Shown one piece after another: positions 2,624-29,700 of a stretch of 45,255 nucleotides of DNA. The stretch spans positions 1-45,255 of the forward strand of contig JAFPUX010000366.1 of assembly GCA_017413145.1 (NCBI GenBank), written 5' to 3'. Within the stretch, counting starts at the first letter, position 1, and every line of letters starts with the position of its first letter. The notes under the pieces were generated by a model. It had not been told where the DNA came from. It saw only the letters and a list, made by a program, of their open reading frames with translations, and did not search any database. The stretch is from Kiritimatiellia bacterium (GTDB taxonomy: Bacteria; Verrucomicrobiota; Kiritimatiellia; RFP12; UBA3636). Position numbers and translations under genes: made by a program.

Positions 2624-2734
2624 TTGACACGCGCGGGGGGTTTCTGGTAGTCTTTCCGGTGTCGGACGGATTGGGACGACGAGCCTCGTCCGTTTTTTGA
2701 AACACAAACAATCACTCGATTGATTTCAGCCGCG
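2624..2734 (+). promoter_or_regulatory. Conserved promoter + leader, type A copy 1
   Basis: TTGACA at 2624-2629, an 18-nt spacer, then TGG-TAGTCT (-10 at 2648-2653). Hairpin plus T6 at 2674-2698. Palindromic box CAATC-ACTC-GATTG at 2709-2722. ATG at 2735. The same layout occurs at 17403-17512, 26664-26774 and 34065-34174. Confidence 0.55.
2674..2698 (+). terminator. Intrinsic-terminator-like hairpin + T6 (ends upstream gene and/or acts as leader attenuator)
   Basis: GGACGA (2674-2679) pairs with TCGTCC (2686-2691) across a 6-nt loop, followed by G and TTTTTT (2693-2698). It lies downstream of the conserved TTGACA/TAGTCT promoter and upstream of ATG 2735. Confidence 0.45.
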
Positions 2735-5539
2735 ATGAAACGCTTCCCGATCGTCCTCGCCGTCGCGCTCTTCGCGCTCGCGCCCGCCACGCGGGCGGAC
2801 GTCCCGGATGTCACCGCCTCGCTCGAGTTCGTCGGCAACCCCGCGCTGCACCGCTGGCCGTCCGACTCCTACGTGCGCGGCGCGCTCGACCTGCAGTTCC
2901 ACCGCGGGACGCTCCTCGTCGGAGGCGGCGAGGTCGAGAACAACCGCGGCCCCGTCCACGTCTACGGCACCGACCCGGTCACGCTCGGCGAGACGTTCGA
3001 GTACTCCGCCGGCACGGAGGCGCTCGCCAACTGCCGCGTCGCGTCGTGGGGCGAGCTGCTCGCCCCCTCGCAGGACCCGCGCGAGGGCGACCCGAACAAC
3101 GGCCACGTCTTCCTCCGCGGCGCGGACGGGACCTGGACGCGCCGCTCGGGCATCGGCGGCAGCGTCCCCTACAAGGTGGGCAGCTCGACCGGCTCCGTCG
3201 CCTCCAACACGCACGTCTGGGACATGGAGGAGTTCGACGGGCGCGTCTTCTCGGCCAGCTACCAGCTGCACTGGTCGACGAACCGTTGCGCCAATTTCAC
3301 GAACACCGGCTCGATCACGAACGCGTACCGGCCTTTCTACTACATGCTCTCGGACGGCGGCTACACGTGGTGGTCGCTGCGCCGCCAGATGCAGCTGCTG
3401 CGCTTCTCCGGCGACCTCTACGCGGTCCCGAACGCCCTGGTCCAGCCGAACTACGCCGTCCAGGATTCGAACAAGTGGTACAACAAGGTCGAGGTGTTCC
3501 ACTGGAACCCCTCGACGCTGAAGTTCGACGAGGGGCGGCAGGCGATGTCGACGCTCTTCCCGAACATTTCGTCGAACGACTTCCGGCTCGTCCTCTCGTC
3601 CTCGGGCGGCAAGACCTGGGACCCGCTGCCGACCGGCACGTACGATGCGCTGCTCGTGCGCCTCTGGCACACGACGCCGTTCAAAGACCGCGTCCTCTAC
3701 GTCGGCTGCTACGACACGCAGGCGGGCGAACCCGCTCTCACCTCCTACCCGCTTCCGCTCATGGGTTGCTCGGCGTACGTCAAGACGAGCGGGTGGGGCT
3801 CGAACCAGACGAAGTCGCTCGCCGCGACGCGCCTCTCGTTCGACGGCGACAAGGAGGAGTACCCGTGGGACTTCGCCGTCGTAGGCGACACGTGCTACGC
3901 GCTCACGTCGAAGCCGAACGCCTCGACCAAGGTCGTGCGCCACTCGGTCTGGAAGTCGACGAACGGCACGAGCTTCACGCGCGTCTTCTCGTTCGACTTC
4001 CACCAGAACATGATCTCGCTCGACTACCGCGACGGCTGGTTCTGGCTCGGCGTCGGCGTGAAGAAGGCGACGCGGGGCTACGCCTACGACAACAAGGCCG
4101 ACGAGTCCGGCGCGGTCTACCGCGTGCGCCTCCCGCAGGAGCCGACGTCCGTCGAGGCGGTCGACCCGCCCGCGACGGTCGCCGAGGGCGGGTCCGCGTC
4201 GATCGCGTTCCGGCTGACCGCGCAGCCCGCGTCGAACCTCACGCTGCGCGTCGCGGCGCGCGAGCGCCGCGGCGTCTCGCTCGACAAGTCGTCGCTCACG
4301 TTCACCACGTCGAACTGGCAGACGCCGCAGAACGTCGCCGTCTCGCTCGCGGACGACGACGTGGGCGACGATTCGCCGGTCGTCGTGCAGTGCGGCGCGT
4401 TCGGGGACGACGTCCGGCGCGGCGAGTTCTGCAGCCCGCAGGTGACGTCCGCCGCCGTGATCCTCTCGCCGGTCGAAAACGACCTGCCGCCCGCGGTCGC
4501 GTCCGAATCCGCCGAGGCCCGCCCGACGACGGCCGACTACCGGGTTGCGCTCGATTCGTTCGGCTCGGTGAACGGCGTGCCGGCGACGTCCGCGTCGGTC
4601 GCGGTGCGCGTCTACGCGGACGCCGCGCACGCGACGCTCGCCGGGCAGACGTCCGGAACGATCGACGCGACCGGGGCGGAGCGCACGTTCCTCGTGGCCG
4701 GCCTCGACCGAGGGACGCGCTACTGGCTCGTCGCCGAAATTTCGGCCGCGCCGGGCGTCGTGCACGCGTTCGAGGCGGAGTTCCTCACGCCCATCGCGAA
4801 CCCGGAGGAGCTCGTCGACCTCATGGACGACGAGGACAACCGCGAGCTCACGCTCTCCAACGCCACGTCCGGCGGCGCGGCGGGGCAGGGGGCCTACGAC
4901 AACAAGGAGACGACGAAGTTCGGCGGCTACAACAAGCCGCCGTGGTTCATCTACCAGTTCAAGACGCCGGTCGTCGTGCGCGGGATCGGCGTCTGTTCGT
5001 CGGGGGAGTCCGACCCCGACCGGAACCCGACCACGATCCAGCTCTACGGCGCGAACACGACGAACAAGAACGACTTCGTGCTGCTCTTCTCGCGCACGGG
5101 CGAGGCGGACTGGACCGCGGGCGAATGGCGCCGCTGGATCGTCGAGAACGAGACCGCCTACACCTGCTACAAGTTCCAGATGTCGGCCGCGAGCCAGCAC
5201 GCCTACATCCGCGAGGTCGAGCTCTACGGCCTCGGCGGCGGTGGCGAGCCTCGGAAGCCCGTCTTCCGCGCCGCGACGGACGGCGGCGCGCTCGCGCTGG
5301 CCGGCGACGCCCTTTCGCTGAACCTCGTCGCGTGCGAAGCGGACTGCTGGTACGCGCCCTTCACCAACGGAACCGTCGCCGGCCCTTTCTTCGCCGAGCG
5401 GGACGGCGTCCATCCGGAGACGGACGGCACGCTCTCCTTCTCCGTCGCCGCCGCCGAATCCGCCAAGTTCGTCGTCGTCGGCGCCTCCCGCGACCCCATC
5501 CGCGCCGGCGAGGCCGTCATCCCTTCCTCGACACCATGA
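2735..5539 (+). CDS. Secreted BNR/Asp-box beta-propeller protein with Calx-beta/Ig-like and F5/8-type-C (discoidin)-like domains and a shared C-terminal domain
   Basis: ATG 2735 (the track ORF starts at TTG 2720) gives the signal peptide MKRFPIVLAVALFALAPATRA. Four Asp-box-like motifs: GADGTW, SDGGYTW, SGGKTW, STNGTSF. Calx/Ig-like segment: ATVAEGGSASIAFRL...VSLADDDVGDD. Discoidin-like jelly roll ends ...YIREVELYG. The last 94 aa are shared with the next gene. Confidence 0.85.
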   Translation: MKRFPIVLAVALFALAPATRADVPDVTASLEFVGNPALHRWPSDSYVRGALDLQFHRGTLLVGGGEVENNRGPVHVYGTDPVTLGETFEYSAGTEALANCRVASWGELLAPSQDPREGDPNNGHVFLRGADGTWTRRSGIGGSVPYKVGSSTGSVASNTHVWDMEEFDGRVFSASYQLHWSTNRCANFTNTGSITNAYRPFYYMLSDGGYTWWSLRRQMQLLRFSGDLYAVPNALVQPNYAVQDSNKWYNKVEVFHWNPSTLKFDEGRQAMSTLFPNISSNDFRLVLSSSGGKTWDPLPTGTYDALLVRLWHTTPFKDRVLYVGCYDTQAGEPALTSYPLPLMGCSAYVKTSGWGSNQTKSLAATRLSFDGDKEEYPWDFAVVGDTCYALTSKPNASTKVVRHSVWKSTNGTSFTRVFSFDFHQNMISLDYRDGWFWLGVGVKKATRGYAYDNKADESGAVYRVRLPQEPTSVEAVDPPATVAEGGSASIAFRLTAQPASNLTLRVAARERRGVSLDKSSLTFTTSNWQTPQNVAVSLADDDVGDDSPVVVQCGAFGDDVRRGEFCSPQVTSAAVILSPVENDLPPAVASESAEARPTTADYRVALDSFGSVNGVPATSASVAVRVYADAAHATLAGQTSGTIDATGAERTFLVAGLDRGTRYWLVAEISAAPGVVHAFEAEFLTPIANPEELVDLMDDEDNRELTLSNATSGGAAGQGAYDNKETTKFGGYNKPPWFIYQFKTPVVVRGIGVCSSGESDPDRNPTTIQLYGANTTNKNDFVLLFSRTGEADWTAGEWRRWIVENETAYTCYKFQMSAASQHAYIREVELYGLGGGGEPRKPVFRAATDGGALALAGDALSLNLVACEADCWYAPFTNGTVAGPFFAERDGVHPETDGTLSFSVAAAESAKFVVVGASRDPIRAGEAVIPSSTP

Positions 5540-5572: not shown

Positions 5573-5785
5573 GATTGCTTCGCAACGCAATCTTGGCGGA
5601 AACGCTTCCCGCATCGCACGCCGCTTCGCGGCTATGCGGAGAAGCGTTTCCGCCCGCGTCGGTGGGGCGAGCCGCCGCGCCGCCCCTGCGGCTCGCACGG
5701 AGTGCTCGCCCCACCGGAGAGTCCCGGCGAAGACCGGTTCCGCCGGCCGCGAAGCGGCCTTGCGGGGCGGACCGGTTTTCGCCGG
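5573..5785 (+). other. Highly structured intergenic segment: one short and three long nested hairpins (candidate ncRNA, REP-like element or RNA processing/stability element)
   Basis: Short hairpin: GATTGC/GCAATC at 5573-5592. Hairpin 1 (5595-5654): perfect 14-bp stem GGCGGAAACGCTTC/GAAGCGTTTCCGCC enclosing CCGCAT/ATGCGG and GCCGC/GCGGC. Hairpin 2 (5660-5716): 13-bp stem CGGTGGGGCGAGC/GCTCGCCCCACCG with an inner GCCGC/GCGGC. Hairpin 3 (5724-5785): ~20-bp stem with one bulge, enclosing GGCCGC-GAA-GCGGCC. Confidence 0.6.
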
Positions 5786-5883: not shown

Positions 5884-8800
5884 ATGAGAAAGACGCTCCC
5901 CCTTCTTCTTCTGTTCCCCGTTCTGGCGAACGCCGCGGAGGTGTCCGTCGAGGACGCCGCGAACGCCGCGCGGGCGTGGGTCGACCGCGGCTACGCGATG
6001 GGCAAGCTCCCCGCCGGGCGCACGGTCGACGGCGTCGACGAGGTCCGGGACCCCGCCACGGGCGCGAAGCTGCTCGTCGCGCGCTTCACGGGCGGCGGCT
6101 ACGTCGTCCTCTCGTCCGACGACCTCGTCGATCCCGTGATCGCGTTCTCCGAAACCGGAACGGGCCTCGACCTCGACGAGGGAAACCCGTTCTGGGCGCT
6201 GCTGCGGGCCGACATCGAGGCGCGCGAGGCCGCGGCGGGCGTCGAGCGCGGCGCGGGCGTCGCCAAGCGGGGCGCCGCCGCGAAGGCGTCCGGAACGACC
6301 GCCGCCCAACGCAAATGGGCGGACCTGCTATCCCGGGAGACGGGCGGCGGACGCGCCCCCGCGCTCCGCGCCACGAAGGCCGCGGCGGGCCGCACCTCGC
6401 TCTCGGACGTCCGGGTCGATTCGTTCGTGCGGTCCCGGTGGTCGCAGTCCAACCATGCCGGAACAAGCATCGGCGAACCGTGCTACAACTACTACGTGAC
6501 GAACCGCTACGTCTGCGGCTGCGTGTCGACCGCGACCTCGCAGCTCATGCGCTACTGGGAGTACCCGACCGCGGCCGAGCCCGTCGTGTCGACCTACTAT
6601 CTCTGCTACGTCGGCAACACGCCGTTCTTACCCCGCATGTTCGGGGGAACCTACGACTGGGACAACATGCCGCTCGACCCAAGGTGGGTCGCGGACATCA
6701 CCGAGGAGGAATGCCAGGCCATCGGCAAGCTCACCTACGACGTCGGGGTAGCCGTCGGCATGCAGTGGAAGTCCACCGGAAGCAGCGCGGAGGTCCCCTC
6801 CACCGTGGCGGCCCTGAAGGCCGACTTCCACTACGCGAGCGCGCACGCCGTCGTCTACGCGAACTCCGGCTCGGGCGCCTACAGCCTGGCGTCGTTCAAG
6901 AAGGGCATGATCCCCAACCTCGACGCGCGCTGCCCGTGCATCCTGAGCATCCAGGGGTCCGGCGGCCACGCGATCCTCGCCGACGGCTACGGCTATTCGG
7001 ACGGCGACTTCTTCATCCACGTCAACATGGGCTGGGCCGGCGAAGGCGACGCCTGGTACAATCCGCCGAACATCGAGGAGTACACCTCGATCCGCGCCTT
7101 CGTCTACAACGTCTTCCCCAGGAAGACCGGCTCCATCGCGAGCGGCCGCGTGCTCGACCAGATCGGAAATCCCGTCGCGGGCGCGGACGTGGCGCTCTCC
7201 GACGGGCAGACCGCGGTCTCCGACGCGAACGGCGTCTACGCATTTATCGCCCCCGCCGGAACGTACGACATCACGGCCGCGAAGGACGGCTTCACGGCGG
7301 GGTTGTCGGTGACGCTCGCCGAAACCGCCGGGACGCCGGTCAAGACGAACCAGACCGAGCACGGCCACTACAACACCGGCGTCGGCACGAACGGAAACGT
7401 CTGCGACAACGACATCCTGCTCGCGGACATGCCGGCGACCGCGAAACCCGTCTTCTCGCCCGGGTCGTGCGCCTTCCATCCCGCCACCAACGTGGCGATC
7501 TCCTGCGCCGACGCGTCCGCGACGATCCGCTACACGGTCGACGGCTCGGCGCCGGACGAGTCGAGCCCCGTCTACGCCGGGCCGATCCGCGTGGACGACA
7601 CCGTCACGCTCAAGGCGCGCGCCTTCGCGCCCGGCTGCAACGCGAGCGCCGTCGCCGTCGCGGACTACGTCTACGACCCCGGGGACGGCCCGCCGAAGGG
7701 CGACAACTTCGACGACCCGATCGAGATCCGCGGCGCGAGCGGAACGTACGTCGTCGCGGACAACGAGGCCTACACGATCGAGGACGGCGAGCCCGTCCAT
7801 GTCGTGGTCGACGGCACGCCCAAGCCCCAGCTCCGCTCGATCTGGTACCGCTGGACGGCGCCCGCGACCGGACGGGTGCTCTTCCGCACGTACTGCCGGA
7901 ACGGCAACTCCGCCTACTGGACCAACATTGCCGCCTACCGTGGGGACACGCTCGCAACCGCCGAGAAGATCGCCTTCTCGACCACCTACGACGCCAACTT
8001 CGCGCAGCTCCTCCCCCTGGACGTCGTCCAGGGGGACACCTATCGGTTCGTCGGAATGATCAACTCGACCAATCCCGCCGCGGCCTTCGGGACCTTCACG
8101 CTACGCTGGGACGACGAGTTCCCCACCGGCGGCGATCCCACGCCCGTCCTCGGCTCGTGCACGGCGGCCGTCGACGGGACGAACGTCGCCTTTTCGGTCG
8201 CGCTCCGGAAAATCGAAGCCCCCGCCGCCGTGTCGGTCTTCTACGGCCTGGACGAAAGCCACCTGACGGAACTTTCGCTCGGCACGGCGAACGCGTCCGG
8301 GACGCTGACCGCGACCGCGACCGGCCTCGCCAACGGGACCTACGTCTGGTATGCGCGCGCCGTCTCGGAAGTCGACGGCGTCCCGTACGCCGCGGAAAGC
8401 GCGCGCAAGACCTTCACGGTCAACTGGGTTCCGCCGCCCGAAGGCATGCTCGTCGCGGACGGCTTCTCGGCGGACGACTACACGGCCGGCACGAAACTCC
8501 AGAATTCGACCGGCGGCGACACGACGGGCTTCACGAGCGCGCGCCCGTGGTCGGCCAAGACGGTCACGGGTGTCCTCTTCGTGAACGACGACGGCCTCTC
8601 TCTCCCCGCCGGCTGGGACGCCGCGCGCTACCCGTCGGGCGGATACTCCATCGGGCTCAAGAATTCCGGCACGACGACCACGTCCGACATTCGCGGCGCG
8701 TGCCGCCAGCTCGCGGACGGCGCCTTCCCGACGAGCGGCACGATCTACTACCGCATCCTCCTGCGCCACGGGACGGGCGCCGGGCATTGCCCGACGAACT

Positions 8801-14441: not shown

Positions 14442-16493
14442 ATGAAACGCCACCCATCCGCCTTCGCGGCGCCCGTCGCCGCCGCGCTTCTCGCGATCCC
14501 CGCGAGCGGCGAAGTCCCCGCGCCGCCAGAAAGCCTGCAGCTCTTCCCGGCGGAGGGCACGACGGTGGAGCCGAACGACGGCGGGACCGTGCGGACGGAG
14601 GGCGATGTCGCCGTCGTCGACATCGCGCCCGGGCACGACTGGGGCGGCGTCCGGTTCGTGTTCGCGGAGCCGTTCGTCCTGAACGCCTACGAAACCGTCT
14701 CGGTCGAAGTCTCGAACCGGACCGACCGCGCGCTGGACTTCGCCTTCTACGGAATCCACCGGGGGTTCTTCACGTGGCATGCGTCACGGCGCTTCCGCCT
14801 CGGGCCGCACGAGGGCCAGGTCGTCACGGCCCCGCACCCCCGCAAGTGCTACGCCCTGGCGCGCGGGAGCCGCGAGATCGACGGCATGATCGGCTACGAC
14901 TCCAAGAACTTCTTCCACAGCTTCGACACGAGCGGGGCCATCGATCACTACGTCGTGTGCTGCTACAGCCGGAAGGAGCCCGCCCGATTCGACGTGAAGG
15001 CGATCCGCGCCGACGGCGGGCGGCCGGGCTTCACGCTGGACGTGGACGACGCGTTCTTCCCGTTCGTGGACGAGTTCGGCCAGTACGCGCACGCGGACTG
15101 GCCGGGCAAGGTGCACTCGCTCGAGGAGCTGAAGGCGGCGGCGGAGGCGGAGGACGAGGCGCTGGGCGCCGACCCCGTGTCGCCGATCCCGGGCGCGGAC
15201 CGCTTCGGCGGCTGGGGCGCCGGCCCGCAGCTCGAGGCGACCGGGATGTTCCGCACGGAGAAGCGCAATGGCCGCTGGTGGCTCGTCGACCCCGACGGGC
15301 ACCTCTTCTTCTCGCTGGGCTGCAACTACGTCCGGCTCCAGTGCCGCACGCCCGTACTCCGGCGCGAGCGGTTCTTCTCTTGGCTTCCGGCGCGCGACGA
15401 CCCGCCCTTCGCCGACTGCTGGAAGGACGGAAAGCTCAACTGGCTCGGCGATTCGCTCTACAAGGGCGCGGGGGCCGTCCCGCAGTTCGACTTCGCGATG
15501 GCGAACCAGAAGCGTCTCTACGGCGCGGACTGGAAGAAGGCCTACGTCGACCGCCAGCACCGCCGCATGCGATCGTGGGGATTCACGTCGATGGGCAACT
15601 GGTCCGACCCCGAGATCATGGCCGCGAGCCGCACGCCCTACGTGGACAACTTCAACCTCGACGGCGTGCGCAAGCTCGAGGGCGACAAGAACGGCGTCTG
15701 GCGCAAGTTCCCCGACGTGTTCGATCCCGACTTCGCCTCCAACGTGGTGGCGTGCGCGCTCAAGACCCGCACGCCCAAGTCGCGCACCGATCCGTGGTGC
15801 ATCGGGTGGTTCGTGGAGAACGAGCTGCACTGGGGGCGCGGCAACAGGACCGACGACATGATCGACGCCGTCGTCGGCTCCCCCGACGACCAGCCGGCCA
15901 AGGTCGAATACCTGCGCCGCCTCCGGGCCGCCCACGGCGAGGACGCGACGTTCGAAAGCGCCACCGCGGAGGACCGCGAGGCGTTCGCCGCCGAGATCGC
16001 CGAGCGCTACTTCTCGACGGTCAAGGCGGCCATCGGGCAGGTCGCGCCCGGGCGCCTCTACCTGGGCTGCCGCTTCCACAACAGCTACCCGGCCGCCCTT
16101 CGCGCCGCGGCGAAGTACTGCGACGTCGTGAGCTTCAACTGCTACAAGGACCTTCCCGAGATTCCGCGCTTCCCGGCCGACGCCGTCGACAAGCCGACGA
16201 TCATCGGCGAGTTCCACTTCGGCTCGCTGGACCGCGGCGCGATGCACGCGGGGCTCGTCCCGTGCCGCGACATGGCCGACCGAGCCGCGCACTACAAGGC
16301 ATACGTCCGCGCGGCGCTCAAGGACCCGAACCTCGTCGGCGTGCATTGGTTCTTCTGGTGCGACATGCCGCTCACCGGCTGGATGGACGGCGAGGACTAC
16401 ATGACCGGCATCCTCACGGTCACGGACACGCCGCACCCCGAGATGGTCGAGGCGACCCGCGAGCTCGCCCGCGAACTCTACGCCGCCCCGTAG
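14442..16493 (+). CDS. Secreted glycoside hydrolase, (beta/alpha)8 clan-GH-A-like, family not assignable by eye; copy 1
   Basis: SD AAGGAG at 14430-14435. Signal peptide present. An N-terminal beta-sandwich is followed by a barrel with an NE motif (WFVENELHW) and a second conserved Glu (IIGEFHFGS). A paralogue lies at 31857..33878. Confidence 0.7.
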   Translation: MKRHPSAFAAPVAAALLAIPASGEVPAPPESLQLFPAEGTTVEPNDGGTVRTEGDVAVVDIAPGHDWGGVRFVFAEPFVLNAYETVSVEVSNRTDRALDFAFYGIHRGFFTWHASRRFRLGPHEGQVVTAPHPRKCYALARGSREIDGMIGYDSKNFFHSFDTSGAIDHYVVCCYSRKEPARFDVKAIRADGGRPGFTLDVDDAFFPFVDEFGQYAHADWPGKVHSLEELKAAAEAEDEALGADPVSPIPGADRFGGWGAGPQLEATGMFRTEKRNGRWWLVDPDGHLFFSLGCNYVRLQCRTPVLRRERFFSWLPARDDPPFADCWKDGKLNWLGDSLYKGAGAVPQFDFAMANQKRLYGADWKKAYVDRQHRRMRSWGFTSMGNWSDPEIMAASRTPYVDNFNLDGVRKLEGDKNGVWRKFPDVFDPDFASNVVACALKTRTPKSRTDPWCIGWFVENELHWGRGNRTDDMIDAVVGSPDDQPAKVEYLRRLRAAHGEDATFESATAEDREAFAAEIAERYFSTVKAAIGQVAPGRLYLGCRFHNSYPAALRAAAKYCDVVSFNCYKDLPEIPRFPADAVDKPTIIGEFHFGSLDRGAMHAGLVPCRDMADRAAHYKAYVRAALKDPNLVGVHWFFWCDMPLTGWMDGEDYMTGILTVTDTPHPEMVEATRELARELYAAP

Positions 16494-16557: not shown

Positions 16558-16587
16558 TTGACATCAAAGCATCTAATTGAATATGAT
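16558..16587 (+). promoter_or_regulatory. vapBC promoter (likely leaderless transcript)
   Basis: TTGACA (16558-16563), an 18-nt AT-rich spacer, then TATGAT (16582-16587). The ATG at 16595 lies 7 nt downstream and no SD is present. Confidence 0.5.
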
Positions 16588-16594
16588 TCCGCAC

Positions 16595-16849
16595 ATGCGC
16601 ACCACACTCACACTTGATGACGACGTATTCCTCCTCCTGGGCCGCCGCCAGAGCGAAAGCGGAGAAACGTTCAAGGATCTTGTCAACGGGCTGCTTCGGT
16701 CCGTGCTGACGCGCAAGGACGCCGGCGTCCGGGCGAAGCCCGCGCCGCGCGTGGAGACCCGGGTGTTCCACGGAGGCACGCTACTGCTGGGAGACGTGGC
16801 GAGCACCTCCGAGCTCCTCGCCCTCGCCGAAGGGGAGGACTACCGATGA
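16595..16849 (+). CDS. vapB: Type II antitoxin, VapB-like
   Basis: The N-terminus MRTTLTLDDDV is typical of VapB/DUF2191-type antitoxins. The start is placed at ATG 16595 because the track start (TTG 16577) and ATG 16583 fall inside the promoter. The stop overlaps the vapC start (ATGA). Confidence 0.75.
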   Translation: MRTTLTLDDDVFLLLGRRQSESGETFKDLVNGLLRSVLTRKDAGVRAKPAPRVETRVFHGGTLLLGDVASTSELLALAEGEDYR

Positions 16850-17277
16850 GGCTGCTCGACGCCAACATCCTGATGTACGCGTCGTTCGACGTCTATCCGC
16901 AGCACGCCCGGACGAAGGCGTGGCTGGACGAGCGCCTCAACGATCCGGACGTCCCCCTCGGAATCCCGTGGGAAAGCGCGCTGGCGTTCGTCCGGCTTGC
17001 GTCCAACCCCCGCGTCCGCACCCCGGCGCTCCGCGTGTCCGAGGCCTGGCGGCAGGTTCGGAACTGGCTCTCGGCGCAGCCGGTCTGGATCCCGCTGCCC
17101 ACGCCCCGGCACCGGAACGTCCTGGACGAGCTGCTCGCCCGTCCCGGGATGAACTCGAAGCTCGTCGCGGACGCCCATCTGGCCGCCCTGGCGATCGAAC
17201 ATGGCCTCGTCCTCTGCTCCGCCGACACGGACTTCGCCCAGTTCCCGAACCTTCGTCTGGAGAACCCGGCGATCTAG
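16846..17277 (+). CDS. vapC: Type II toxin, PIN-domain ribonuclease VapC
   Basis: MRLLDANILMYA (acidic residue at position 5), DAHLAALAIEHG, and SADTDFAQF near the C-terminus. Length is 143 aa. It is translationally coupled to the antitoxin. Confidence 0.85.
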   Translation: MRLLDANILMYASFDVYPQHARTKAWLDERLNDPDVPLGIPWESALAFVRLASNPRVRTPALRVSEAWRQVRNWLSAQPVWIPLPTPRHRNVLDELLARPGMNSKLVADAHLAALAIEHGLVLCSADTDFAQFPNLRLENPAI

Positions 17278-17402: not shown

Positions 17403-17512
17403 TTGACCGCGCGCGCGCGCTATGGTAGCCTTTATTCCCGAAGGGGCGCCCCGGACGGGGCGCACCCCTTTACAAGGCCCGACAATCACCCGATTGACGC
17501 ATGGAGACTCCC
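17403..17512 (+). promoter_or_regulatory. Conserved promoter + leader, type A copy 2
   Basis: TTGACC at 17403-17408, a 17-nt spacer (GCGCGCGCGCGC...), then TGG-TAGCCT (17426-17431). Hairpin GCGCCCC-GGAC-GGGGCGC within 17443-17468. Box CAATC-ACCC-GATTG at 17483-17496. GGAGA SD. ATGAAA at 17513. Confidence 0.55.
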
Positions 17513-21659: not shown

Positions 21660-22685
21660 CTAGCGCGTGGTGCCGCGGGCGGCGACGGCGGGGCGAGCGA
21701 GAATCGACGCGGGAGCGCCGCCGGCGATCGCCTCGTCGAGCAGGCGCACGCCCGCTGCGGCGCGCTCGGTCTCGTGGGTCGAAACCGAGGAGAGGGGAAT
21801 CGCGGCCAGGGTGCAGAACGGCGAATCGTCCACGCCGAGGACCTTCACCTGCTCCGGCACGCGAACGCCCGCCTCGAGCAGTGCGTTGAGCACCAGCGCC
21901 GCGCCGCGGTCGGACTCGCAGAAGACGGCGTCGATCGCGCGGCGCTTCGCGGCGGCGGCGATGCGCGCGAGGGCGTCCGCGTTCGGCACGTAGGTGCGGC
22001 TGATCGCGACGACGCGGTCGTCCGCCACGGGCGCGCCGGCCTTCTCGAAGACCGCCCGGAAGCCGGCGAGGCGCCGCTCGCCGACCTTCGCGGAGAAGCC
22101 CGGCGAGGAGAGCGCGAGCGGACGGCGGCAGCCGCGCGAGAGCAGGTGCTTCGCGGCGACCTCGCCGACGGCCTCCTGCGAGACGCCGGCGTTCGGGACG
22201 CCCTCCGCGGCGGGGTCGCCGAACACGGTCGCGGCCGGCAGGCCGCGTTCCGCCAGCTCGGCCAGCGCGGGCGCGAGGTCGAAGTACGGCATGCCGCCGA
22301 AGAGCACGCCGTCCACGCGGGCGCGGGAGGCGGCGGCGAGGCAGTCGCGGCGGAACTCCGCCTCGTCGTGGAAGAACTGGAGCCCCATGCGCTTGCCGGC
22401 GCGGGCGAGCTCGCGCGTGGCGCCGTCGAGGAAACGCTCCAGGAGCGCGCTGCCCTCCGTGCCGTGGCGCGAGAGGAACACCGCGATGCAGTCCTGCCGC
22501 CCCGAGTGGAGCGAGCGCGCGGCGGCGTTCGGGACGAAGCCGCGCGCCTGGGCGATCTTCCGGATGCGGGAGGCCAGCTCCGGCCGCACGGTGCTGGTGC
22601 CCATGCGGCCGCTGAGGACCTTCGAGACGAGGGAGCGGGAGACGCCGGCTTCGCTGGCGATATCCAGGATTCTTACGGATGACAT
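21660..22685 (-). CDS. LacI-family transcriptional regulator
   Basis: N-terminal HTH: VRILDIASEAGVSRSLVSKVLSG. The C-terminal region has a periplasmic-binding-protein-like fold. It lies 39 nt downstream of, and co-oriented with, the 22725..26528 gene. Confidence 0.9.
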   Translation of the reverse strand: MSSVRILDIASEAGVSRSLVSKVLSGRMGTSTVRPELASRIRKIAQARGFVPNAAARSLHSGRQDCIAVFLSRHGTEGSALLERFLDGATRELARAGKRMGLQFFHDEAEFRRDCLAAASRARVDGVLFGGMPYFDLAPALAELAERGLPAATVFGDPAAEGVPNAGVSQEAVGEVAAKHLLSRGCRRPLALSSPGFSAKVGERRLAGFRAVFEKAGAPVADDRVVAISRTYVPNADALARIAAAAKRRAIDAVFCESDRGAALVLNALLEAGVRVPEQVKVLGVDDSPFCTLAAIPLSSVSTHETERAAAGVRLLDEAIAGGAPASILARPAVAARGTTR

Positions 22686-22724: not shown

Positions 22725-25700
22725 TTATGGCAGCAGGACGAGAGAGCCGAAGGCGCCGGGCGACCAGGGGTCGAGGCCGCGGCCCCAGGCCGCCGCGCCG
22801 TGGCCGGCGCCGTTGTCGGCGTCCGTGAGGCGCAACGAGAACCCGAGGCGCGTGCCGGGCTGCGGGCGCACGCCGCCCGCGTCGCCCCACGGGATGCGCA
22901 GCTCGTAGCAGGTGTCCTTGCCGGCGCGCTTCACGGCGACCTCGTAGACGGAAGAGTCCTTTGCGAGCTGGCCGCTCGAGAGGCCGGCGCTGTGCGCGGC
23001 CGGGCGGAACACGGTGTGGTGGCCGGAGCCGCCGCCCGGGCTCGCGGAGGACACGTACCACTCGATCGCCGCGCCCTCGGTGCCGGGGAGGCGGTTCACC
23101 GGGTGCAGGCCGATTTGGAGCGCGTCGCCGGAGAGCGTCTTCTCGCCGGTCTGCGCGACGTGCACGTCGTCGCGCACCCGGACGGCGAGGTAGAGCGCGT
23201 CGGCGTCCCACGCGAGTTGCGCGATGCCGGAGAGGTTCTCGGGCGTCCACTTGTAGCCGCCCTCGGCGACCATCTGGTTGGCGCACAGGAGCGGGACCGG
23301 GTCGGCGAAGTCCCAGTCGGAGAGGTCGCCGTCGATCGTGCGCGGCTTCGCGGCCTTGTGCGCCTCGGCGGCCCAGTCGGAGCCGTCGTAGGCCGTCACG
23401 CGGAGGTTGTCGTAGAGCGCGGTGCCCTTCGCGCCCCTCGCGACGGGCTGGACCTGGGCGTCGGCGTTGTCCGGCACGCTGCCGGCGACCTTGATCATGA
23501 GCTGCCAGGCGCCGAAGCTGTCCTTCGGGGCGCAGAAGACGTCCGGGATGTAGAGGTCGTAGTGGCCGCCGCTCTTCTGGAAGAACGACATGTTGGAGCC
23601 GGCGTACATGTCGTCGGTCCGCATCCACGCGGTGTAGAGGAGGTCGCGGCCGGGCGTCGGATTGTGGATCCGCTGGAAGCACTGCACGTAGTCGGGGGAA
23701 TGGTCGAGCGAGAGAGCGTGGCCCTCCTCGCCGGGGCGCCCGCCGGGCAGGTCGACCACGCGGCCGCCGCCGATCCATCCGTTCTTCCCGTTCTCGAAGC
23801 CGCCATTGGCGAGGAGGTTGCCGAGCGTGGCGGGGTCGACGGTGTCCACCGCGACCGAACGCGCCGCCTTGTCGGCCTTCTCGGCCTTGGGCGCCTTCCA
23901 GGCGACCGCGACGACGGCCTCCGAGGGGCCGTCGGGAAGCGCCTCCGGCGGGATGTCCAGGACGTAGTGCGCGTTTTCGCCGGCAGCGAGCCTGAACAAC
24001 TTGCGGACGGCGGACTTTCCGGCGACGGAGATGTCGAGGCCGCCCGCGACGGGGACGCGGAGCGGGTTGCGGACGGAGACGCGCAGCTGCGGGTCGGCGC
24101 CCTTGACGAAGCCGACGCTCGGCTTGGACGTGAGCGGCCCCTGGCCGTCGACCGAGAGCGCGCAGCGCACGGCGAGGCGGCTCAGCGGCAGCCCCTCGTA
24201 GAACGCCGGCATCGCGCCGGCGGCGACCGGGATCGCGTTGCCGTCGCCGACGGACACCTCCGTCGCGTTTCCCTGGTGGTCGGTGCGCACGACCGTGGTG
24301 CCGGGCGTGGCGGGGATCTTGACGTCGACGGGCGGCGCGGCGGGGTTGCCGTTCACGGAGCCGACCACCGCGAGCGCGGTGCCGTCCTTGCGCTCGAAGA
24401 CGAGGACGCGCGCGCCGGGTTCGGCGTAGTAGCCGCCGACGGGGCGGGCGTCGCCGAGCTTGGCGGAGAGGACGGCGAGCGTCGCGGCGACGGGCCGCGG
24501 CGTGTGGTCGTCGAGGAGGTATTTCCAGTTGCCGGCGGGGTTCGCCTCGCCGCCGAAGTAGATGATGCCGTCCACGCCCGCGACGAGTTGCTCGGGCCAG
24601 GAGCGCATCACTTGCATCGACTGGATGGCGCTGCGCTCGAGCGCCTCGCGGCCCTCCATGCCCCAGACGGAGATGCCGCAGGCGTTCTCGTCGTCCCAGA
24701 CGGAGGAAACGCCGCCCGCGGCGGCGTCCGCGAGCGCCTCGGCCGCGCTCCCGTAGCTGCCGTAGTGGATCGGGAGGATGTCGATGGATTTTCCGACGCC
24801 GGCGCCGAGCAGGTCGAGGCGGAAGTTGCGCGGCCAGAGGCCGCCCGCGAGGATGGACTTGGCCTTGGGGTTCACCTTGCGCAGCTCCTCCGCGCCGATT
24901 TCGCAGAAGCGCTTGTAGTCGGACACGGGGTCGGAGCTCTTGCTGCCGGGGACGATCTCGTTGAGCCACTCGATGCCGTAGACGCGCTTGCCGAACTTCT
25001 GCGCGATCGCGCGAATGCTCTCGCGCCAGCCGTCCTCGTCGAAGGGATACGGCTCGAAGCCGGGCGAGTGGACGTGCTCGGGCAGCACCCACTCGGGCGC
25101 GCCGGTGAGCATGAGCCAGGGCTTGATGCCGTGCTTGAGCTGGCGGTCCATCGAGGCGGAGAGGCCGTCGAAGCGGTACTCGCCGCGCTTCGGGACGAGC
25201 CCGCCCCACCCGGTGAACATGCGGTTCACGGAGAAGCCGAGCTTCGCGGCCGCCTCGCACTCCATCTCCGTGTGCAGGTCGGTCGCGCCGAACGGCGCGC
25301 GCTTGCCGCCGAGCGCCTTGTCGACGTCGGGGATCACGCCGAAGAACGCGTCCACCTTCGCGTCGCCGCCGCGCCCCTCCGCGAGGAAGCAGCCGAGGCG
25401 CCTGCCGACGACGCCCGAGAGGTCGACCTTGGCGGTCTTGCCGGGCGTGGGGATGGTGGCGGTCGCGGTTCCGACCTCCTCGAGCCGCCCGTCCGTGTCG
25501 AGCGCGCAGACCTTGATCGCGACCGGAGCGCCGGCCTTCGCGTCGGCCGCCGCGACGAGGTCGAGCACGGGCTTCTCGCGGCCCGCGACGAAGAGGCCGC
25601 CCGCGGTCGGGGCGACGAGGTCGATGCCCACCAGCGGGCGCACGAGCCGCGGCGCGCTGCAGGTCGTCGTCCACGGGAAGTCCCGGTCGTCGCCGCCGCG

Positions 25701-26528
25701 GAAGCGGACGTGGAAGAAGAGCGAGTTGTAGCGGAAGAGCTTCTGGACCGTCTGCCGGAAGCGCACCGTGCCCTGGCCGGGCTTGATTTCCTGGAAGCCC
25801 CAGCCGAGGCCGGGGTAGTTCACGTGGTGGCGGTCCTTCTCGTGGACGCCGTCCGGATTGTCGATCCACGGGCCGCAGCCGAAGGCGACGACGTGGCACT
25901 TGTCGTTCCAGTACTCGGACGGATCGAGGTAGTAGTCTACGACGATCTCGAAGGACTCGCCCTCGTGCACCTCCGCCATGGGCTCGTCCGTCCCGGGCTT
26001 GAAGCAGCCGCGCGGCTGCAGCCAGCTCTTCTTGTAGGTGATGCCCTCCGGCGGCTTGCGGCGCGCGGCGGCGGCCTCCTCCTCCTTCCTCTTCTTCTCG
26101 ACTTGCTCGGCCGTCATCTCCCAGTTGATCCGGCCGCAGAAGAGCACGTGCGTCTGCTTGTTCCAGTCGCCGTTCGGCGCGGTGAAGACGAGCGGGCCGA
26201 AGGAGCCGAGGTCGTCCTTGAAGTCCGCCGCGAACGTGTAGGTCGCGGTCCCGCCCTTCTGGATCGTCTGGGGCGGGCGCCACTGGCCCGTGTCCCGCCA
26301 GCCGCCGTCGGGCTTGAAGGTGTGCACAGCGACCGAGACGTTCTCGTCCGGCCCGAGATCCTTCTTGAGCGTGACCTTGATCTGGAAGCCGGAGCCGGGC
26401 TTGACCTTGTCGGGCGTCTCGACCCGGAGCCAGTCGTCTTCGTGGACGCCGGCGGCGGCCGGCCGTGCGAACAGCGCCGCGGCGCAGAGCGCGGCGGCGA
26501 GGAAGGAACGGTTGAGCGGATGTTTCAT
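22725..26528 (-). CDS. Large secreted glycoside hydrolase-like protein (Ig-like N-domain, clan-GH-A-like barrel, CBM4_9-like and CBM9/DOMON-like domains), copy 1
   Basis: Signal peptide MKHPLNRSFLAAALCAAALFARPAAA. Barrel NE motif in IEWLNEIVPG. CBM4_9-type motif: NLLANGGFENGKNGW. CBM9-like motif: DGDLSDWDF...AWDADALYLAVRVRDD. A paralogue lies at 41322..45128 (roughly 80-85% aa identity by eye). Confidence 0.85.
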   Translation of the reverse strand: MKHPLNRSFLAAALCAAALFARPAAAGVHEDDWLRVETPDKVKPGSGFQIKVTLKKDLGPDENVSVAVHTFKPDGGWRDTGQWRPPQTIQKGGTATYTFAADFKDDLGSFGPLVFTAPNGDWNKQTHVLFCGRINWEMTAEQVEKKRKEEEAAAARRKPPEGITYKKSWLQPRGCFKPGTDEPMAEVHEGESFEIVVDYYLDPSEYWNDKCHVVAFGCGPWIDNPDGVHEKDRHHVNYPGLGWGFQEIKPGQGTVRFRQTVQKLFRYNSLFFHVRFRGGDDRDFPWTTTCSAPRLVRPLVGIDLVAPTAGGLFVAGREKPVLDLVAAADAKAGAPVAIKVCALDTDGRLEEVGTATATIPTPGKTAKVDLSGVVGRRLGCFLAEGRGGDAKVDAFFGVIPDVDKALGGKRAPFGATDLHTEMECEAAAKLGFSVNRMFTGWGGLVPKRGEYRFDGLSASMDRQLKHGIKPWLMLTGAPEWVLPEHVHSPGFEPYPFDEDGWRESIRAIAQKFGKRVYGIEWLNEIVPGSKSSDPVSDYKRFCEIGAEELRKVNPKAKSILAGGLWPRNFRLDLLGAGVGKSIDILPIHYGSYGSAAEALADAAAGGVSSVWDDENACGISVWGMEGREALERSAIQSMQVMRSWPEQLVAGVDGIIYFGGEANPAGNWKYLLDDHTPRPVAATLAVLSAKLGDARPVGGYYAEPGARVLVFERKDGTALAVVGSVNGNPAAPPVDVKIPATPGTTVVRTDHQGNATEVSVGDGNAIPVAAGAMPAFYEGLPLSRLAVRCALSVDGQGPLTSKPSVGFVKGADPQLRVSVRNPLRVPVAGGLDISVAGKSAVRKLFRLAAGENAHYVLDIPPEALPDGPSEAVVAVAWKAPKAEKADKAARSVAVDTVDPATLGNLLANGGFENGKNGWIGGGRVVDLPGGRPGEEGHALSLDHSPDYVQCFQRIHNPTPGRDLLYTAWMRTDDMYAGSNMSFFQKSGGHYDLYIPDVFCAPKDSFGAWQLMIKVAGSVPDNADAQVQPVARGAKGTALYDNLRVTAYDGSDWAAEAHKAAKPRTIDGDLSDWDFADPVPLLCANQMVAEGGYKWTPENLSGIAQLAWDADALYLAVRVRDDVHVAQTGEKTLSGDALQIGLHPVNRLPGTEGAAIEWYVSSASPGGGSGHHTVFRPAAHSAGLSSGQLAKDSSVYEVAVKRAGKDTCYELRIPWGDAGGVRPQPGTRLGFSLRLTDADNGAGHGAAAWGRGLDPWSPGAFGSLVLLP

Positions 26529-26629
26529 GGACTGTTTTCCGTTTGTGTCAAATCAATCGTGTGACTTTTTGGGAAACGAAAGTCTCACGACGCCGTCCGA
26601 TTCTATCCCAATCCCCCCGTCCGGCGCAA
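26529..26629 (-). promoter_or_regulatory. Conserved promoter + leader, type B copy 1
   Basis: On the minus strand: TTGCGC (26629-26624), an 18-nt spacer, TAGAAT (26605-26600), a GAGAC/GTTTC-type hairpin, the box AGTCACACGATTG (26554-26567 region), and ATGAAACATCCGCT. It aligns almost base for base with 41221-41321. Confidence 0.55.
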
Positions 26630-26663
26630 GCGAAAACGACGGAAGGCGCGAAGTCGCGAACGC

Positions 26664-26774
26664 TTGACACGCGCGCGCGAATTTTGATAGGTTTCCGCTT
26701 GAAGGGACGCCCCGGGGTCGGGGGTCCTTTTTTCGCAACTCCGGCAATCATCCGATTGATACAAGGAGATTCGC
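26664..26774 (+). promoter_or_regulatory. Conserved promoter + leader, type A copy 3
   Basis: TTGACA at 26664-26669, an 18-nt spacer (CGCGCGCGCG...), then TGA-TAGGTT (26688-26693). Hairpin plus T6 at 26705-26733. Box CAATC-ATCC-GATTG at 26745-26758. AAGGAGA SD. ATGAAA at 26775. Confidence 0.55.
26705..26733 (+). terminator. Intrinsic-terminator-like hairpin + T6 inside leader A3 (candidate attenuator)
   Basis: GGAC(G)CCCC pairs with GGGGGTCC across a 6-nt loop (26705-26727), followed immediately by TTTTTT (26728-33). The upstream neighbour is divergent, so this cannot be that gene's terminator. Confidence 0.5.
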
Positions 26775-29700
26775 ATGAAACGCATCCTTCCTCTCCTGCT
26801 CCTCGCCGTCCTCCTCGCGCTTCCCGCCCGCGCGGCGGAGGCCGACTCCACCGGCCTCGTTCCCACGCTCTGGTGGGACTTCGAGACGCAGCCGTCCTCT
26901 TCGGGACTCCCGGGCGCGAACAAGGGTTCCGCGAGCGGCTTCACGTTCACCGGCGAGGGGACTGCCACCTACGTCGCGGGCGCCACGAACGGCTGGGCGC
27001 TCGATGCGTCGAAGTTCACGCCGTATTCGTCGAAGAACAACTTGTTCTCGACGGCTGGCGGCGCCTTCACGCTCTCCCTCGTCATGAATCTCGGCTCGGC
27101 CCAGGGCGGCATCGCGCTGAACCTCCGCAACGAAACCGGGGCGAAGGACCTGATCGTCCGCCGCGGCTCGGCCGCGGGGGCGCTCGTCGTCGGCCTCGGC
27201 CCGCAGGCGTCCGCTTCGACGGTCCTTCTCGAAACGACGTTCGCGGACGGCGGATTCGGCCTGGCACCTCGTCACCGTCGTCTTCAAGGACACCGGGACG
27301 GACCTCTACGTGGACGGCACCCTGGCGGATTCCACGGCGAGCGCCACGCTGTGGAGCGCCTCGGGCGGTGCCAGCCGCCTCCAGTTCGGATCGCACCTGG
27401 GCGGCCTCCAGGCCAACGAGGCTAGAAACGGCGGCTGCATCGACGACCTGCGCATCCACGACGCGGCGCTCACGACCGTCCAAATCCGTGCCGTCGCCGC
27501 CGAATACGGACTCGTCCACGACGACGGTTTCATCGGAATCGCCGCGTCCGGGGAACCGACGGTCGGCGCGGATTCCTTCCGGACGCCGTTCGATCTGCTT
27601 CTGGACCAAGGCGACGCGGCGGAAGTCGCGATCGTCCACGGCGCGGACGCCGCGCTGTCGGCGCCGGCGACGAACGTCGTCGGTTCGGCGCTGCCGGCCG
27701 GTTCCTACACGGCGTCGCTCTCCGGCCTCGCGTCCGGCACGACCTACTGGTGGAAACTCGTCGCGAGCAACGGCGTCCGCCGGGCCGAAACGGACGTGGC
27801 GTCGTTCCGCACGCTCGACACGGTCGCCGCGGCGGACTTTTCCCGGCGCGTTCCGGTCGCCGTCTCCGGCTATGCCGGATCCTCCACGCTCACGAACTTC
27901 CCGGTCCTCGTGAAGCTCGCGGCGGACGCTCCCTCCGGCTTCGACTACGCCGACTGCGCGGCAGACGGTTCGGACCTCCGCTTCGCGGCCCCGGACGGCC
28001 TCCTCCTCCACCACGAGATCGACACGTGGAACACGAACGGCGAGTCGTTCGTCTGGGTGAAGGTTCCGGCGCTCTCCGGCACGGCCACGGCCTTCACGAT
28101 GTATTACGGCGCGGCGGACCCGACGGCGCTTCCGACGGTCGATCCGCGCTCCGTCTGGACGGCGACCGGCCACCGCGCCGTGTGGCACTTCGCCGCGGAC
28201 GCGACGGAATCCGCGCAGGGCCTGGTCCCGTCCTCGACCACCGGCACGCCGTCCTATGAATACGCCGGTGCCGTCGGTCCATGCTGGCAGAGCGCGGGCG
28301 CGGCCTGGCTGCAGTATGCCAACGACGCCTCCTGGAGGACGCTCGGCGCGGGCTCGACGCTCACGATTTCCGTCTGGGCCAAATTCGACGACAGCAAGTA
28401 CGAATACCAGCGAATCCTTTCCACGATGTCCAACTGGCAGAACACCGCCGGCTACGAGCTGACCGTCCAGAACCAGAAGAACCAGATCACCGTCGGGTCG
28501 AGCGGGCGGAGCCAGTACCAGAAGGTCGTTTCGCCCGGACCGATGGACGAACTGGTCTACCTCACGGCCGTCTACAACGCCGACCGCTACGCGGACCTCT
28601 ACGTGAACGGCGTCCTGCAGGAGCACCAGCAACTCAACGCGGTCGTGCAGCCGACGGAGGCGATGACGGTCGCCTGCGTGGCCGGCGGCGGCAACGTCTG
28701 GAACGGCCGGCTGGACGAGCTCCGCCTCCACGCGGCCGCCGAATCGGCCGACTGGGTCAAGGCCTGCTACGACACGATGGCGGCGCCGGCGTCGTTCGTC
28801 ACGCTTTCGCCGGCCGAATCGACCGACCCGGACCTGCCGCGGTTCGGCGCAGTTTCCGCGTCCGACGCGAACGGCGTCGCGACCTTCACCGTTCCGCTCA
28901 CCGAGCCCGGCTACGGCGGCGAAGTCCCGACCGCCGTTTCGGTCTTCTACGGGACCGACGGCGAAACCTGGACGGAGCTTCCCCTCGGTTCGACGAACGA
29001 GGCCGCGACGCTCACCGGAACGGCGTCCGGTTTCGAGGCCGGCGTCCGCTACGTGTGGTACGCCGAGGCGACCGCTACGAGCGGCGGCACGCCCAAGACG
29101 ACGACTTCCCCGCAGCGGTCCTTCGTCGCGAGGTCCTTCGACCCGACTGGCTACTACAAGTCCTTCACGGCGACCGTCGCCTGGGACGGCGCGCCCGCGG
29201 AGAACGTCCCGTTCCTGCTGCGCATCTCCGAGACAGGGATCCACGGCTTCGACTACGACGACGTCACGGCGTCCGGCCTCGAGATCCTCGACGAAGGCGG
29301 CCAACTGCTGCCCTACGAGATCGACACGTGGAACACGAACGGCGAATCGCTCGTCTGGACGCGCCTGCCCGTCTACGAAAACGGCGCGACGGTCACGGTC
29401 CGCTACGGCGCCCCGTTCGCCAACGCGCCGCTCCCCGCGACGAATGTCTGGGCTGGCTATGCCGGCGTCTGGCACATGAACGAAACATACGACGCCGAGA
29501 CCGCCGCGACGGGACTCGCGCGCGACTCGACCGGGAATGGCCTCGACGCCACGCCGTCCAAAGGCGGTTCCGGCAATCTCGCGGAGATGGTTTCCGATGC
29601 CGGCGTTATAGGAAACGCTCGCGTTAACGCCACAAGCGATGTCGCTGGCGGAAACTACCTCTCCGTTCCAAACTACGACTCGCTTGCGCTTGGCGACACG

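Follow-up and report, generated by a model that had tools for sequence, protein, structure and literature searches.

Hairpins, U-Runs, and Candidate LacI-Family Operators at a Near-Constant Spacing in Leaders from an Uncultured Kiritimatiellae Genome

The leaders of four paralogous genes (A1, A2, A3, and A4) were found in a computational analysis to carry, between the promoter and the start codon, a terminator-like hairpin and U-run, followed 12–14 nt later by the core of a palindrome that resembles an operator of the LacI family. Judging from the sequences of these leaders and of their relatives, the hairpin/U-run and the operator are coupled. We propose that they are the two halves of a single control module, in which the bound repressor would act as a promoter-proximal roadblock that holds the 3′-end of the RNA in the U-run, the hairpin would release the polymerase, and an inducer would relieve the block. 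Our estimate of the probability of this reading is about 0.45. That the leaders are a natural module in which a LacI-family repressor, bound ~13 nt past a sub-optimal terminator, parks the polymerase and thereby makes the terminator efficient is considered slightly less probable.

Results

Promoters and Genes of the A-Type Leaders

The window, by which we mean the entire stretch of DNA that was analyzed, is 45,255 bp in length with a GC content of 70% (15% T). It is assigned to an uncultured Kiritimatiellae bacterium from ruminant gut metagenomes by the protein names of close homologues and by sample labels. The genes behind the A-type leaders start at positions 2735 (A1), 17513 (A2), 26775 (A3), and 34175 (A4), and the leaders can be aligned with one another over ~150 nt. 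The products of these genes are large, secreted proteins that contain LamG/DUF2341 or F5/8-type-C domains or that are without a Pfam match. The elements of an A-type leader are arranged in the order TTGAC(A/C), a spacer of 17–18 nt, TGnTAGnnT, a GC-rich hairpin, a T-run, the box CAATCAYNCGATTGA, and ATGAAAC. The sequence GGAGA is found between the box and ATGAAAC in A2–A4 only.

The promoter-like element of A1 is located on the forward strand at positions 2624–2653 and consists of TTGACA (2624–2629), an 18-nt spacer, and TGgTAGTCT, with the −10 hexamer at 2648–2653. This promoter was not listed by a simple promoter scan; TAGTCT agrees with TATAAT at three of six positions. The corresponding elements of the other leaders, all on the forward strand, are TTGACC, a 17-nt spacer, and TGgTAGCCT for A2 (17403–17431), TTGACA, an 18-nt spacer, and TGaTAGGTT for A3 (26664–26693), and TTGACA, an 18-nt spacer, and TGgTAGTTT for A4 (34065–34094). 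An extended −10 of the form TGGTAGnnT also precedes unrelated genes in the relatives. The −10 of this clade resembles TGGTAGRAT, and it was found before unrelated genes in contigs L198, L199, L205, and L208 and at position 38559 of the window. The A-type promoters are supported by this recurrence. A second promoter on the 3′-side of the hairpin was considered and rejected: the box contains TTGAYA, yet in none of A1–A4 is there a fitting −10 between it and the SD and ATG.

The promoter spacers of A3 and A4, and those of their relatives, contain alternating CGCGCGCGCG, which is expected to be prone to Z-DNA formation. A long imperfect palindrome is found at ~33914–34036, between the preceding gene and the A4 promoter, and one of its arms contains three tandem GACGACGGGATG-like units. 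Within positions 16558–17277 there is a near-consensus promoter (TTGACA, 18 nt, TATGAT) with an ATG ~8 nt further on. The genes in this interval encode an antitoxin-like protein of 88 residues (MRTTLTLDDDV...) and a PIN-domain protein, and they are probably a VapBC-type toxin–antitoxin pair with a very short leader. At positions 38559–38634, the promoter-like sequence TTGACG, 17 nt, TGGTAGGAT is followed by a leader hairpin, GCGTGT...ACACGC, with neither a box nor a U-run. This hairpin stops 2 nt 5′ of the ATG at 38632, which belongs to a PGA_cap gene, and it could mask the ribosome-binding region.

The A1 gene (2735–5539) encodes a protein of 934 residues and is a separate gene in the window; it follows a LamG gene (41–2599) and has a leader of its own. 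Many homologues of the A1 protein (P0065–P0076) are the C-terminal part of proteins of 1300–1630 residues with PF20434, and some of these also contain LamG and DUF2341. This represents either a differing domain architecture or a gene that was split by the leader cassette. The ATG and signal peptide of A3 open a reading frame of 216 residues (26775–27425), and the 1514-residue DUF2341/LamG body is in another frame (27310–31854). The latter frame is open from position 27154, with a GTG at 27310 taken as its start; L192 is arranged alike. The split could be the result of a frameshift, a pseudogene, an assembly error, or recoding.

Leader Hairpins and U-Runs

A preliminary description of this DNA had placed a terminator-like hairpin and U-tract between the promoter and the ATG. 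This arrangement was confirmed for A1–A4, where the hairpin is located before the SD and on the 3′-side of the sole plausible promoter. The stems begin 8–11 nt past the −10, and the T-runs are found 35–45 nt past the −10 and 36–41 nt before the ATG, in rough agreement with the positions that had been claimed.

The hairpin and T6 of A1 occupy positions 2663–2698 of the forward strand, with a calculated folding energy of −13.3 kcal/mol. The 5′-arm is either CGGACG (2663–2668) or GGACGA (2674–2679), the 3′-arm is TCGTCC(G) (2686–2692), and T6 is at 2693–2698. In A2, the hairpin and TTT (17440–17471, forward strand) have the form GAAGGGGCGCCCC-GGAC-GGGGCGC.ACCCC and fold with −22.9 kcal/mol; the value for the whole A2 leader is −33 kcal/mol (z = −2.8). 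The hairpin and T6 of A3 (26701–26733, forward strand) fold with −20.5 kcal/mol, with the hairpin itself, GAAGGGAC.CCCCG-GGGT-CGGGG.GUCC, at 26701–26727 and T6 at 26728–26733; the whole A3 leader was calculated with RNAfold to be at −31 kcal/mol (z = −2.25). The A4 hairpin and TTTT (34102–34134, forward strand; TTTT at 34131–34134) have the form GAAGGGGU..CCC-CGGAA-GGG..ACCUC and fold with −13.9 kcal/mol. The fold of the whole A4 leader is weak (z = +0.4), but when the nascent RNA is folded only as far as the U-run, its MFE structure is the terminator-type hairpin. Orthologues of A4 are found in L102 and L173.

On both strands of the 45-kb window there are two T6 runs, and these are the runs of A1 and A3, each directly after a leader hairpin. 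The combination of hairpin and T6 in A1 and A3 is not a product of chance, and the leader U-run is under selection. A generic terminator scan of the window gave no enrichment (8 sites against 11 expected, and 13 against 11 in a second scan). A pattern scan for terminators also picked up the A1 and A3 stems.

Other inverted repeats were observed around the A1 gene. The repeat formed by CCCCCGCGCG (2606–2615) and CGCGCGGGGG (2630–2639) has the A1 −35, TTGACA, in its loop and GTTTCT after it, and it looks like the terminator hairpin of the upstream gene, overlapping the A1 promoter. On the 3′-side of the stop codon of the A1 gene, long GC-rich inverted repeats extend from GGCGGAAACGCTTC (5596–5609) and GAAGCGTTTCCGCC (5641–5654) to others at ~5800, and no U-run accompanies them. 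The gene-end hairpins of this organism seem to be without U-tracts, unlike the leader hairpins.

The Operator-like Box

The box is an even palindrome of 16 bp that is centered on CG, ARTCAANCGNTTGAYT. The 15 distinct instances collected from the window and its relatives conform to ARTCAA-N-CG-N-TTGAYT. Sites with at most one mismatch were found six times in the window, against 0.06 expected, and all of them are in the six leaders (A1–A4 and the B-type leaders B1 and B2). In A1, the operator-like 16-mer AATCACTCGATTGATT is at positions 2710–2725 of the forward strand; its core, TCACTCGATTGA (2712–2723), is 13 nt past T6 and 11 nt before the ATG at 2735. The forward-strand 16-mers of the other A-type leaders are at 17484–17499 in A2 (core 17486–17497, 14 nt past TTT), 26746–26761 in A3 (core 26748–26759, 14 nt past T6), and 34146–34161 in A4 (core 34148–34159, 13 nt past TTTT).

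In a survey of 1,303 factors, the operators of the LacI family were described as even palindromes (16–22 bp) with CG at the center, and autoregulation was found for 72% of the factors (PMC4052901). The box is a palindrome of this kind, and its six sites in leaders include that of the operon that encodes both a CBM9-domain protein and a LacI-family regulator, as expected for a regulon that contains the regulator's own operon. We conclude that the box is a candidate LacI-family operator and is an element of the DNA and not of the RNA.

That the box would be a protein-binding site on DNA and not an RNA structure is indicated by its position, which shifts relative to the promoters among the relatives. 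In L205–207, the palindrome overlaps the −35 (TCAAACGATTGAC, 17 nt, TAGGAT) before the A1 orthologue, and in L213 it overlaps the −35 before two paralogues; in L205 and L213, the TTGAC of the box serves as the −35. In L194 (position 4746), the palindrome is found 6 nt before the ATG of a FAD-oxidoreductase gene. An RNA hairpin formed by the box itself (CAAUC/GAUUG, 5 bp) was also considered and rejected. This pairing is not kept in the B-type boxes or in those of L194 and L195, while the CG-centered DNA palindrome is kept. The A3 and B1 operators are 195 bp apart, and DNA looping between them was considered.

The LacI-Family Regulator and the B-Type Leaders

The window also encodes a candidate for the protein that binds the box. 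The gene for a LacI-family transcription factor (21660–22685, reverse strand) encodes a protein of 341 residues with the Pfam domains LacI and Peripla_BP_1/3/4, and it scores under every NCBIfam equivalog cut-off. Dimeric PurR and GalR are also 341 residues in length. The gene is the last of the box-bearing B1 operon and is located 39 nt 3′ of the first, which encodes a secreted protein with a CBM9 domain (22725–26528, reverse strand). L194, L195, and L217 have kept the CBM9–LacI pair, together with the box. The CBM9 operon of L214 also has the box, but the LacI gene that follows is split. The gene call at 6824–7272 is broken into fragments of 86 and 63 residues, which may indicate a pseudogene. 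In the CBM9 leader of L214, the hairpin, the U-run, and the operator are still present, and a second LacI-family gene is found at 15293–16255. From these sequences we infer that the regulator encoded at 21660–22685 is most likely the protein that binds the box. The preliminary description had left the sensor of these leaders without a name; the likely sensor is this regulator, with an operator-like palindrome 12–14 nt past each U-run of the A-type leaders.

The B1 and B2 leaders are ~90% identical to each other and contain a variant of the box, AAGTCACACGATTGA. The B1 leader of the CBM9–LacI operon (26551–26629, reverse strand) consists of TTGCGC (26629–26624), TAGAAT (26605–26600), a hairpin (26588–26571), and the operator (26566–26551), with the ATG at 26528. 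The B2 leader, in front of a second CBM9 gene (41221–41299, forward strand), contains TTGCGC, TAGAAT (41245–41250), the hairpin GGGAGAC-TTTC-GTTTCCC (41262–41279), and the operator (41284–41299), with the ATG at 41322. In B1, B2, and their orthologue in L217, the operator is on the 3′-side of the promoter and is separated by 5–6 nt from a short hairpin (GGGRRAC/GTTTCCC), which has no U-run and is retained through G·U/A-U swaps. The FAD-oxidoreductase leader of L194 has at most a mini-hairpin of 4 bp with TTT, 6 nt from the operator. The coupling of hairpin and operator is not universal, because the leaders of B1, B2, L217, and the L194 FAD-oxidoreductase break the rule of a U-run at 12–14 nt. 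Positions 5150–5290 of L217, between the LacI gene and a second CBM9 gene, read in the reverse direction as a weak stem, TTTTT, 13 nt, and TCACTCGGTTGA, continuing with GGAGATTC and then ATA in place of ATG; there is no gene behind it, and it looks like a decayed A-type leader.

Spacing in the Relatives

Relatives of the leaders were sought with the pattern CAATCAYNCGATTGAN{8,22}ATGAAA in public genome and metagenome contigs, which returned 94 and 97 matches, respectively. The true relatives among the genome contigs are L011 and L056 only, and those among the metagenome contigs are L102, L132, L141, L166, L173, L176 (identical to L056), and L185. The other matches to the pattern were attributed to chance and come from unrelated taxa.

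The comparison yielded 11 distinct leaders with hairpins of six classes that are unrelated in sequence: A1; A2, A4, L011, L056, L141, and L185; A3; L194; L195; and L214. In all 11, the stem has a folding energy between −13 and −26 kcal/mol, starts 5–11 nt past the −10, and ends in T3–T6; these stems correspond to the GC-rich hairpin of ~5–14 bp that characterizes an intrinsic terminator. The canonical U-rich tract of such a terminator is ~7–9 nt in length and follows directly after the stem (PMC3993855). The U-runs of the leaders are below this length, at 3–6 nt (T6 in A1 and A3; T5 in L011, L056, and L194; T3–T4 in A2, A4, and L195), and in several cases part of the run is base-paired with the 5′-GAA. 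Premature termination inside the leaders is plausible, because a terminator-like hairpin and U-run have been kept in six hairpin classes of unrelated sequence.

The gap between the U-run and the operator core was found to be 12–14 nt in 11 of the 11 leaders (~2 nt less to the edge of the 16-mer), which come from a limited number of related contigs of metagenomic origin; these represent two to four lineages, and the leader classes may share ancestry. The constancy of the spacing could be partly inherited. The same leaders differ in the distance from the operator to the ATG (8–15 nt) and in loop length (4–17 nt), so indels do occur in them, but the interval from the U-run to the operator has been spared. 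The operator core begins 50–59 nt past the −10 hexamer in these 11 leaders and 36 nt past it in the other four, with the transcription start sites being predicted.

In other leaders, the hairpin and the U-run are both missing. The A1 orthologue in L205 (90% protein identity) has its operator over the −35 and has neither hairpin nor U-run, and the same is true of the L213 leaders in which the operator overlaps the promoter. Orthologues with no box (that of A4 in L199 and those of the CBM9 gene in L198, L199–203, and L204) have plain short leaders that are also without a hairpin. The CBM9 orthologues that are not beside a LacI gene (L197–L204) have no box-bearing leader and were used as negative controls.

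These results bear on the explanation that the hairpin and the operator are two independent devices, namely, a constitutive partial attenuator that damps a strong promoter and an ordinary repressor site downstream, whose proximity would be mechanistically meaningless. This would fit with the hairpins and U-runs of A3, L194, and L195, which resemble complete intrinsic terminators, and with the operators that exist without a hairpin in L205, in L213, and at position 4746 of L194. We consider it unlikely, since it does not account for a gap that is fixed over six hairpin classes while other segments of the leader change in length, nor for the loss of the hairpin and U-run in every case where the operator is absent or is placed over the promoter.

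A somewhat smaller likelihood is given to a 5′-terminal stem-loop that would shield the mRNA from 5′-end-dependent decay, with a U-run that serves mainly to pair with the initiating purines (GAA). The stems start at, or within a few nucleotides of, the predicted 5′-end, GAA is paired with UUY in the A2–A4-like leaders, and the hairpins of B1, B2, and L217 have been preserved through G·U/A-U swaps despite having no U-run. However, A1, L194, and L214 show no pairing between the U-run and the 5′-end, and a U5–U6 run exceeds what such pairing would need in a genome where T-runs are very rare. The fixed distance to the operator, and the absence of the hairpin from orthologues with a different operator placement, would also be left unexplained.

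Folding of the Leader RNAs

The preliminary description had interpreted these leaders in terms of attenuation or antitermination and had suggested that the four leaders be folded. The folding calculations returned terminator-type hairpins, in keeping with the termination half of that interpretation, but there is no competing structure in A1 or A3 and no conserved antiterminator pairing. The alternating C/G tracts that had been pointed out in A2 and A4 are real. The mutually exclusive antiterminator/terminator switch that was thought to be built from them did not hold up, as the alternative fold, in which the U-run is left free, is the MFE structure in only 3 of 12 leaders (L102, L173, and L185), and only if the RNA starts right after the −10 hexamer. 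When the start was moved 5 or 8 nt further, the terminator-type hairpin was obtained in every leader. The alternative fold requires bases 1–7 past the −10 hexamer, which are probably outside of the transcript. Competing structures were absent from the folds of L194, L195, and L214, as they were from those of A1 and A3. An antiterminator made from the alternating tracts was thus rejected as a general mechanism.

In an analysis of covariation among 10 A2–A4-like leaders, 90.8% of the cells were paired and 0 pairs had changed on both sides, with shuffled alignments giving equal results; these leaders are too conserved for this analysis to have power. The structure is supported by the recurrence of the hairpin in unrelated sequences and not through covariation. 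The whole window gave no match to Rfam 15 at the gathering scores, and at E values up to 10 the region around A3 and B1 (26400–26900) gave chance-level matches alone (E ≥ 3). The scanned open reading frames contain no domain of the BglG, ANTAR, or LoaP type, which bears out the earlier statement that no antiterminator protein is encoded in the window. No recognizable sensor of an RNA switch, whether a leader peptide, an aptamer or RNA family, or an RNA-binding antiterminator, was found in the window.

An attenuator at the level of the RNA, in which alternative pairings of the C/G tracts would respond to a ligand or an RNA-binding protein, is therefore quite improbable. The CCCC/GGGG alternation in the A2/A4-like leaders and the three leaders whose complete RNA prefers the U-run-freeing fold speak in its favor; the dependence of that fold on bases that are probably not transcribed, the five leaders with no competitor, the 0 covarying pairs, and the absence from the window of an Rfam match and of a gene for an RNA-binding antiterminator speak against it. 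Control that acts on the DNA, through a roadblock, is more likely than control via refolding of the RNA, because a LacI-family gene is present in the window and an operator-like palindrome is found 12–14 nt past each U-run.

Least probable of all is a terminator or insulator for upstream transcription that overlaps the control region of the next gene by an accident of compaction, which would suit A1, A2, and A4 in that they follow co-directional genes and in that the separate hairpin of the gene upstream of A1 (2606–2615 with 2630–2639, GTTTCT) already overlaps a promoter, but which is excluded for A3, where the leader faces a divergent gene as previously noted (the B1-controlled gene at 22725–26528 on the minus strand), and which is contradicted by the location of the hairpin 3′ of the promoter, where the gene's own transcripts are affected too, and by the long hairpins at gene 3′-ends in the window, which have no U-runs.

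Discussion

In the proposed roadblock mechanism, transcription would start ~6–8 nt past TGnTAGnnT, near the G of GAAGGG, and the hairpin would be transcribed first. The operator would then be centered near +55, beyond the footprint of initiation, and a repressor bound there is expected to block early elongation. It is this predicted position outside of the initiation footprint that suggests a role as an elongation roadblock. RNA polymerase from Escherichia coli has been shown to halt 14 nt upstream of an EcoRI-Q111 site (PMC5499547), a distance that was determined with a roadblock other than a LacI-type protein and with a polymerase other than that of this organism. If the same distance applies, the polymerase would stop ~14 nt before the bound protein, and the 3′-end of the RNA would be within or at the end of the U-run, because the U-run stops 12–14 nt before the operator core. 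The hairpin would be just behind.

A polymerase stalled with this geometry would be in the configuration of intrinsic termination, and it would be released quickly, without queueing and without pushing the repressor off. Once a sugar inducer had removed the repressor, the polymerase would more often get past the U-run, which is short and probably sub-optimal, and expression of the gene would follow. In this scheme, termination at the U-run would depend on the repressor. One observation is at odds with the roadblock model: the hairpins of A3, L194, and L195, with U5–U6, look strong enough to terminate unaided, and unaided termination would make induction inefficient.

Roadblocks formed by members of the LacI family are known for PurR, GalR, and CcpA (PMC10310618). 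The roadblocked polymerase is cleared slowly, with a half-life of ~11 s and with ~90% of the clearance being due to Mfd (PMC4132739). Queued polymerases assist one another past the roadblock and can push the repressor off, and promoter-proximal roadblocks are leakier than was modelled (PMC4132739). A release site that is built into the leader would make a roadblock near +50 tight, since a stalled polymerase would otherwise be removed slowly.

The leaders described here share several features with the known LacI-family roadblocks, which include PurR at purB, GalR, CcpA at intragenic cre sites, and the LacI models. In the known cases, a palindromic operator is located past the transcription start site and the footprint of initiation, as is predicted here, and a block to elongation is relieved by an effector, as is proposed here (PMC10310618, PMC4132739). 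In the literature consulted on these roadblocks, however, release of the stalled polymerase is attributed to Mfd or Rho and no dedicated hairpin and U-run at the stall site is mentioned, and here it is such a hairpin and U-run that are proposed to release it. The roadblock would also be very near to the promoter, at ~+50, unlike the known cases from this family. In the literature that was searched, whose coverage was limited, we found no natural bacterial repressor roadblock that is paired with a terminator, and this is an absence of evidence only.

Leader attenuators (trp, pyrBI, the riboswitch platforms, and the TRAP/PyrR-type systems) also have a GC-rich hairpin and U-run between the promoter and the start codon, and short leader transcripts are expected here as they are there. 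Unlike the attenuators, the leaders described here have no conserved antiterminator, leader peptide, aptamer, or site for an RNA-binding protein, and the proposed input is a protein on the downstream DNA and not a refolding of the RNA. A position at the 5′-end of the mRNA, as predicted here, or close to it is shared with the stem-loops of ompA-type 5′-untranslated regions, which, however, depend neither on a U-run nor on a set spacing from a downstream operator.

The closest analogue to have been described is eukaryotic, and the spacing is similar to that found in the terminators of RNA polymerase I (Pol I). There, the polymerase halts in a T-rich stretch located 15 bp short of the Reb1/Nsi1 site, and its release is brought about by an RNA hairpin on the upstream side (PMC12366685). 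The terminators that use Reb1, Nsi1, or TTF-I combine, in the same order as the leaders, a hairpin, a T-rich stretch, and a DNA-bound protein ~15 bp further on (PMC12366685). They are, however, located at the ends of genes, they are constitutive, and they belong to another polymerase and another domain of life, while the elements described here are in 5′-leaders and are proposed to be conditional on an effector. The likeness is an analogy of mechanism and not a homology. The leaders appear to combine two kinds of device that are already known, the LacI-family roadblock and the intrinsic terminator.

If the hairpin were unrelated to the LacI operator, and only this ordinary reading were true, the result would be the routine annotation of a regulon. 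If the proposed mechanism is true, the leaders would represent a third logic of leader control in bacteria, beside RNA switches and promoter occlusion, in which a DNA-bound repressor decides whether a terminator fires. They would be a bacterial counterpart to the Reb1/TTF-I termination of Pol I. The built-in release site would remedy the weakness of promoter-proximal roadblocks, which is the slow removal of the polymerase by Mfd and the displacement of the repressor (PMC4132739). The module is compact, at ~110 bp, and could potentially be reused as a tight inducible part. For the uncultured Kiritimatiellae of the rumen, these leaders provide a first view of how the large secreted proteins with LamG, DUF2341, CBM9, and F5/8-type-C domains may be regulated.
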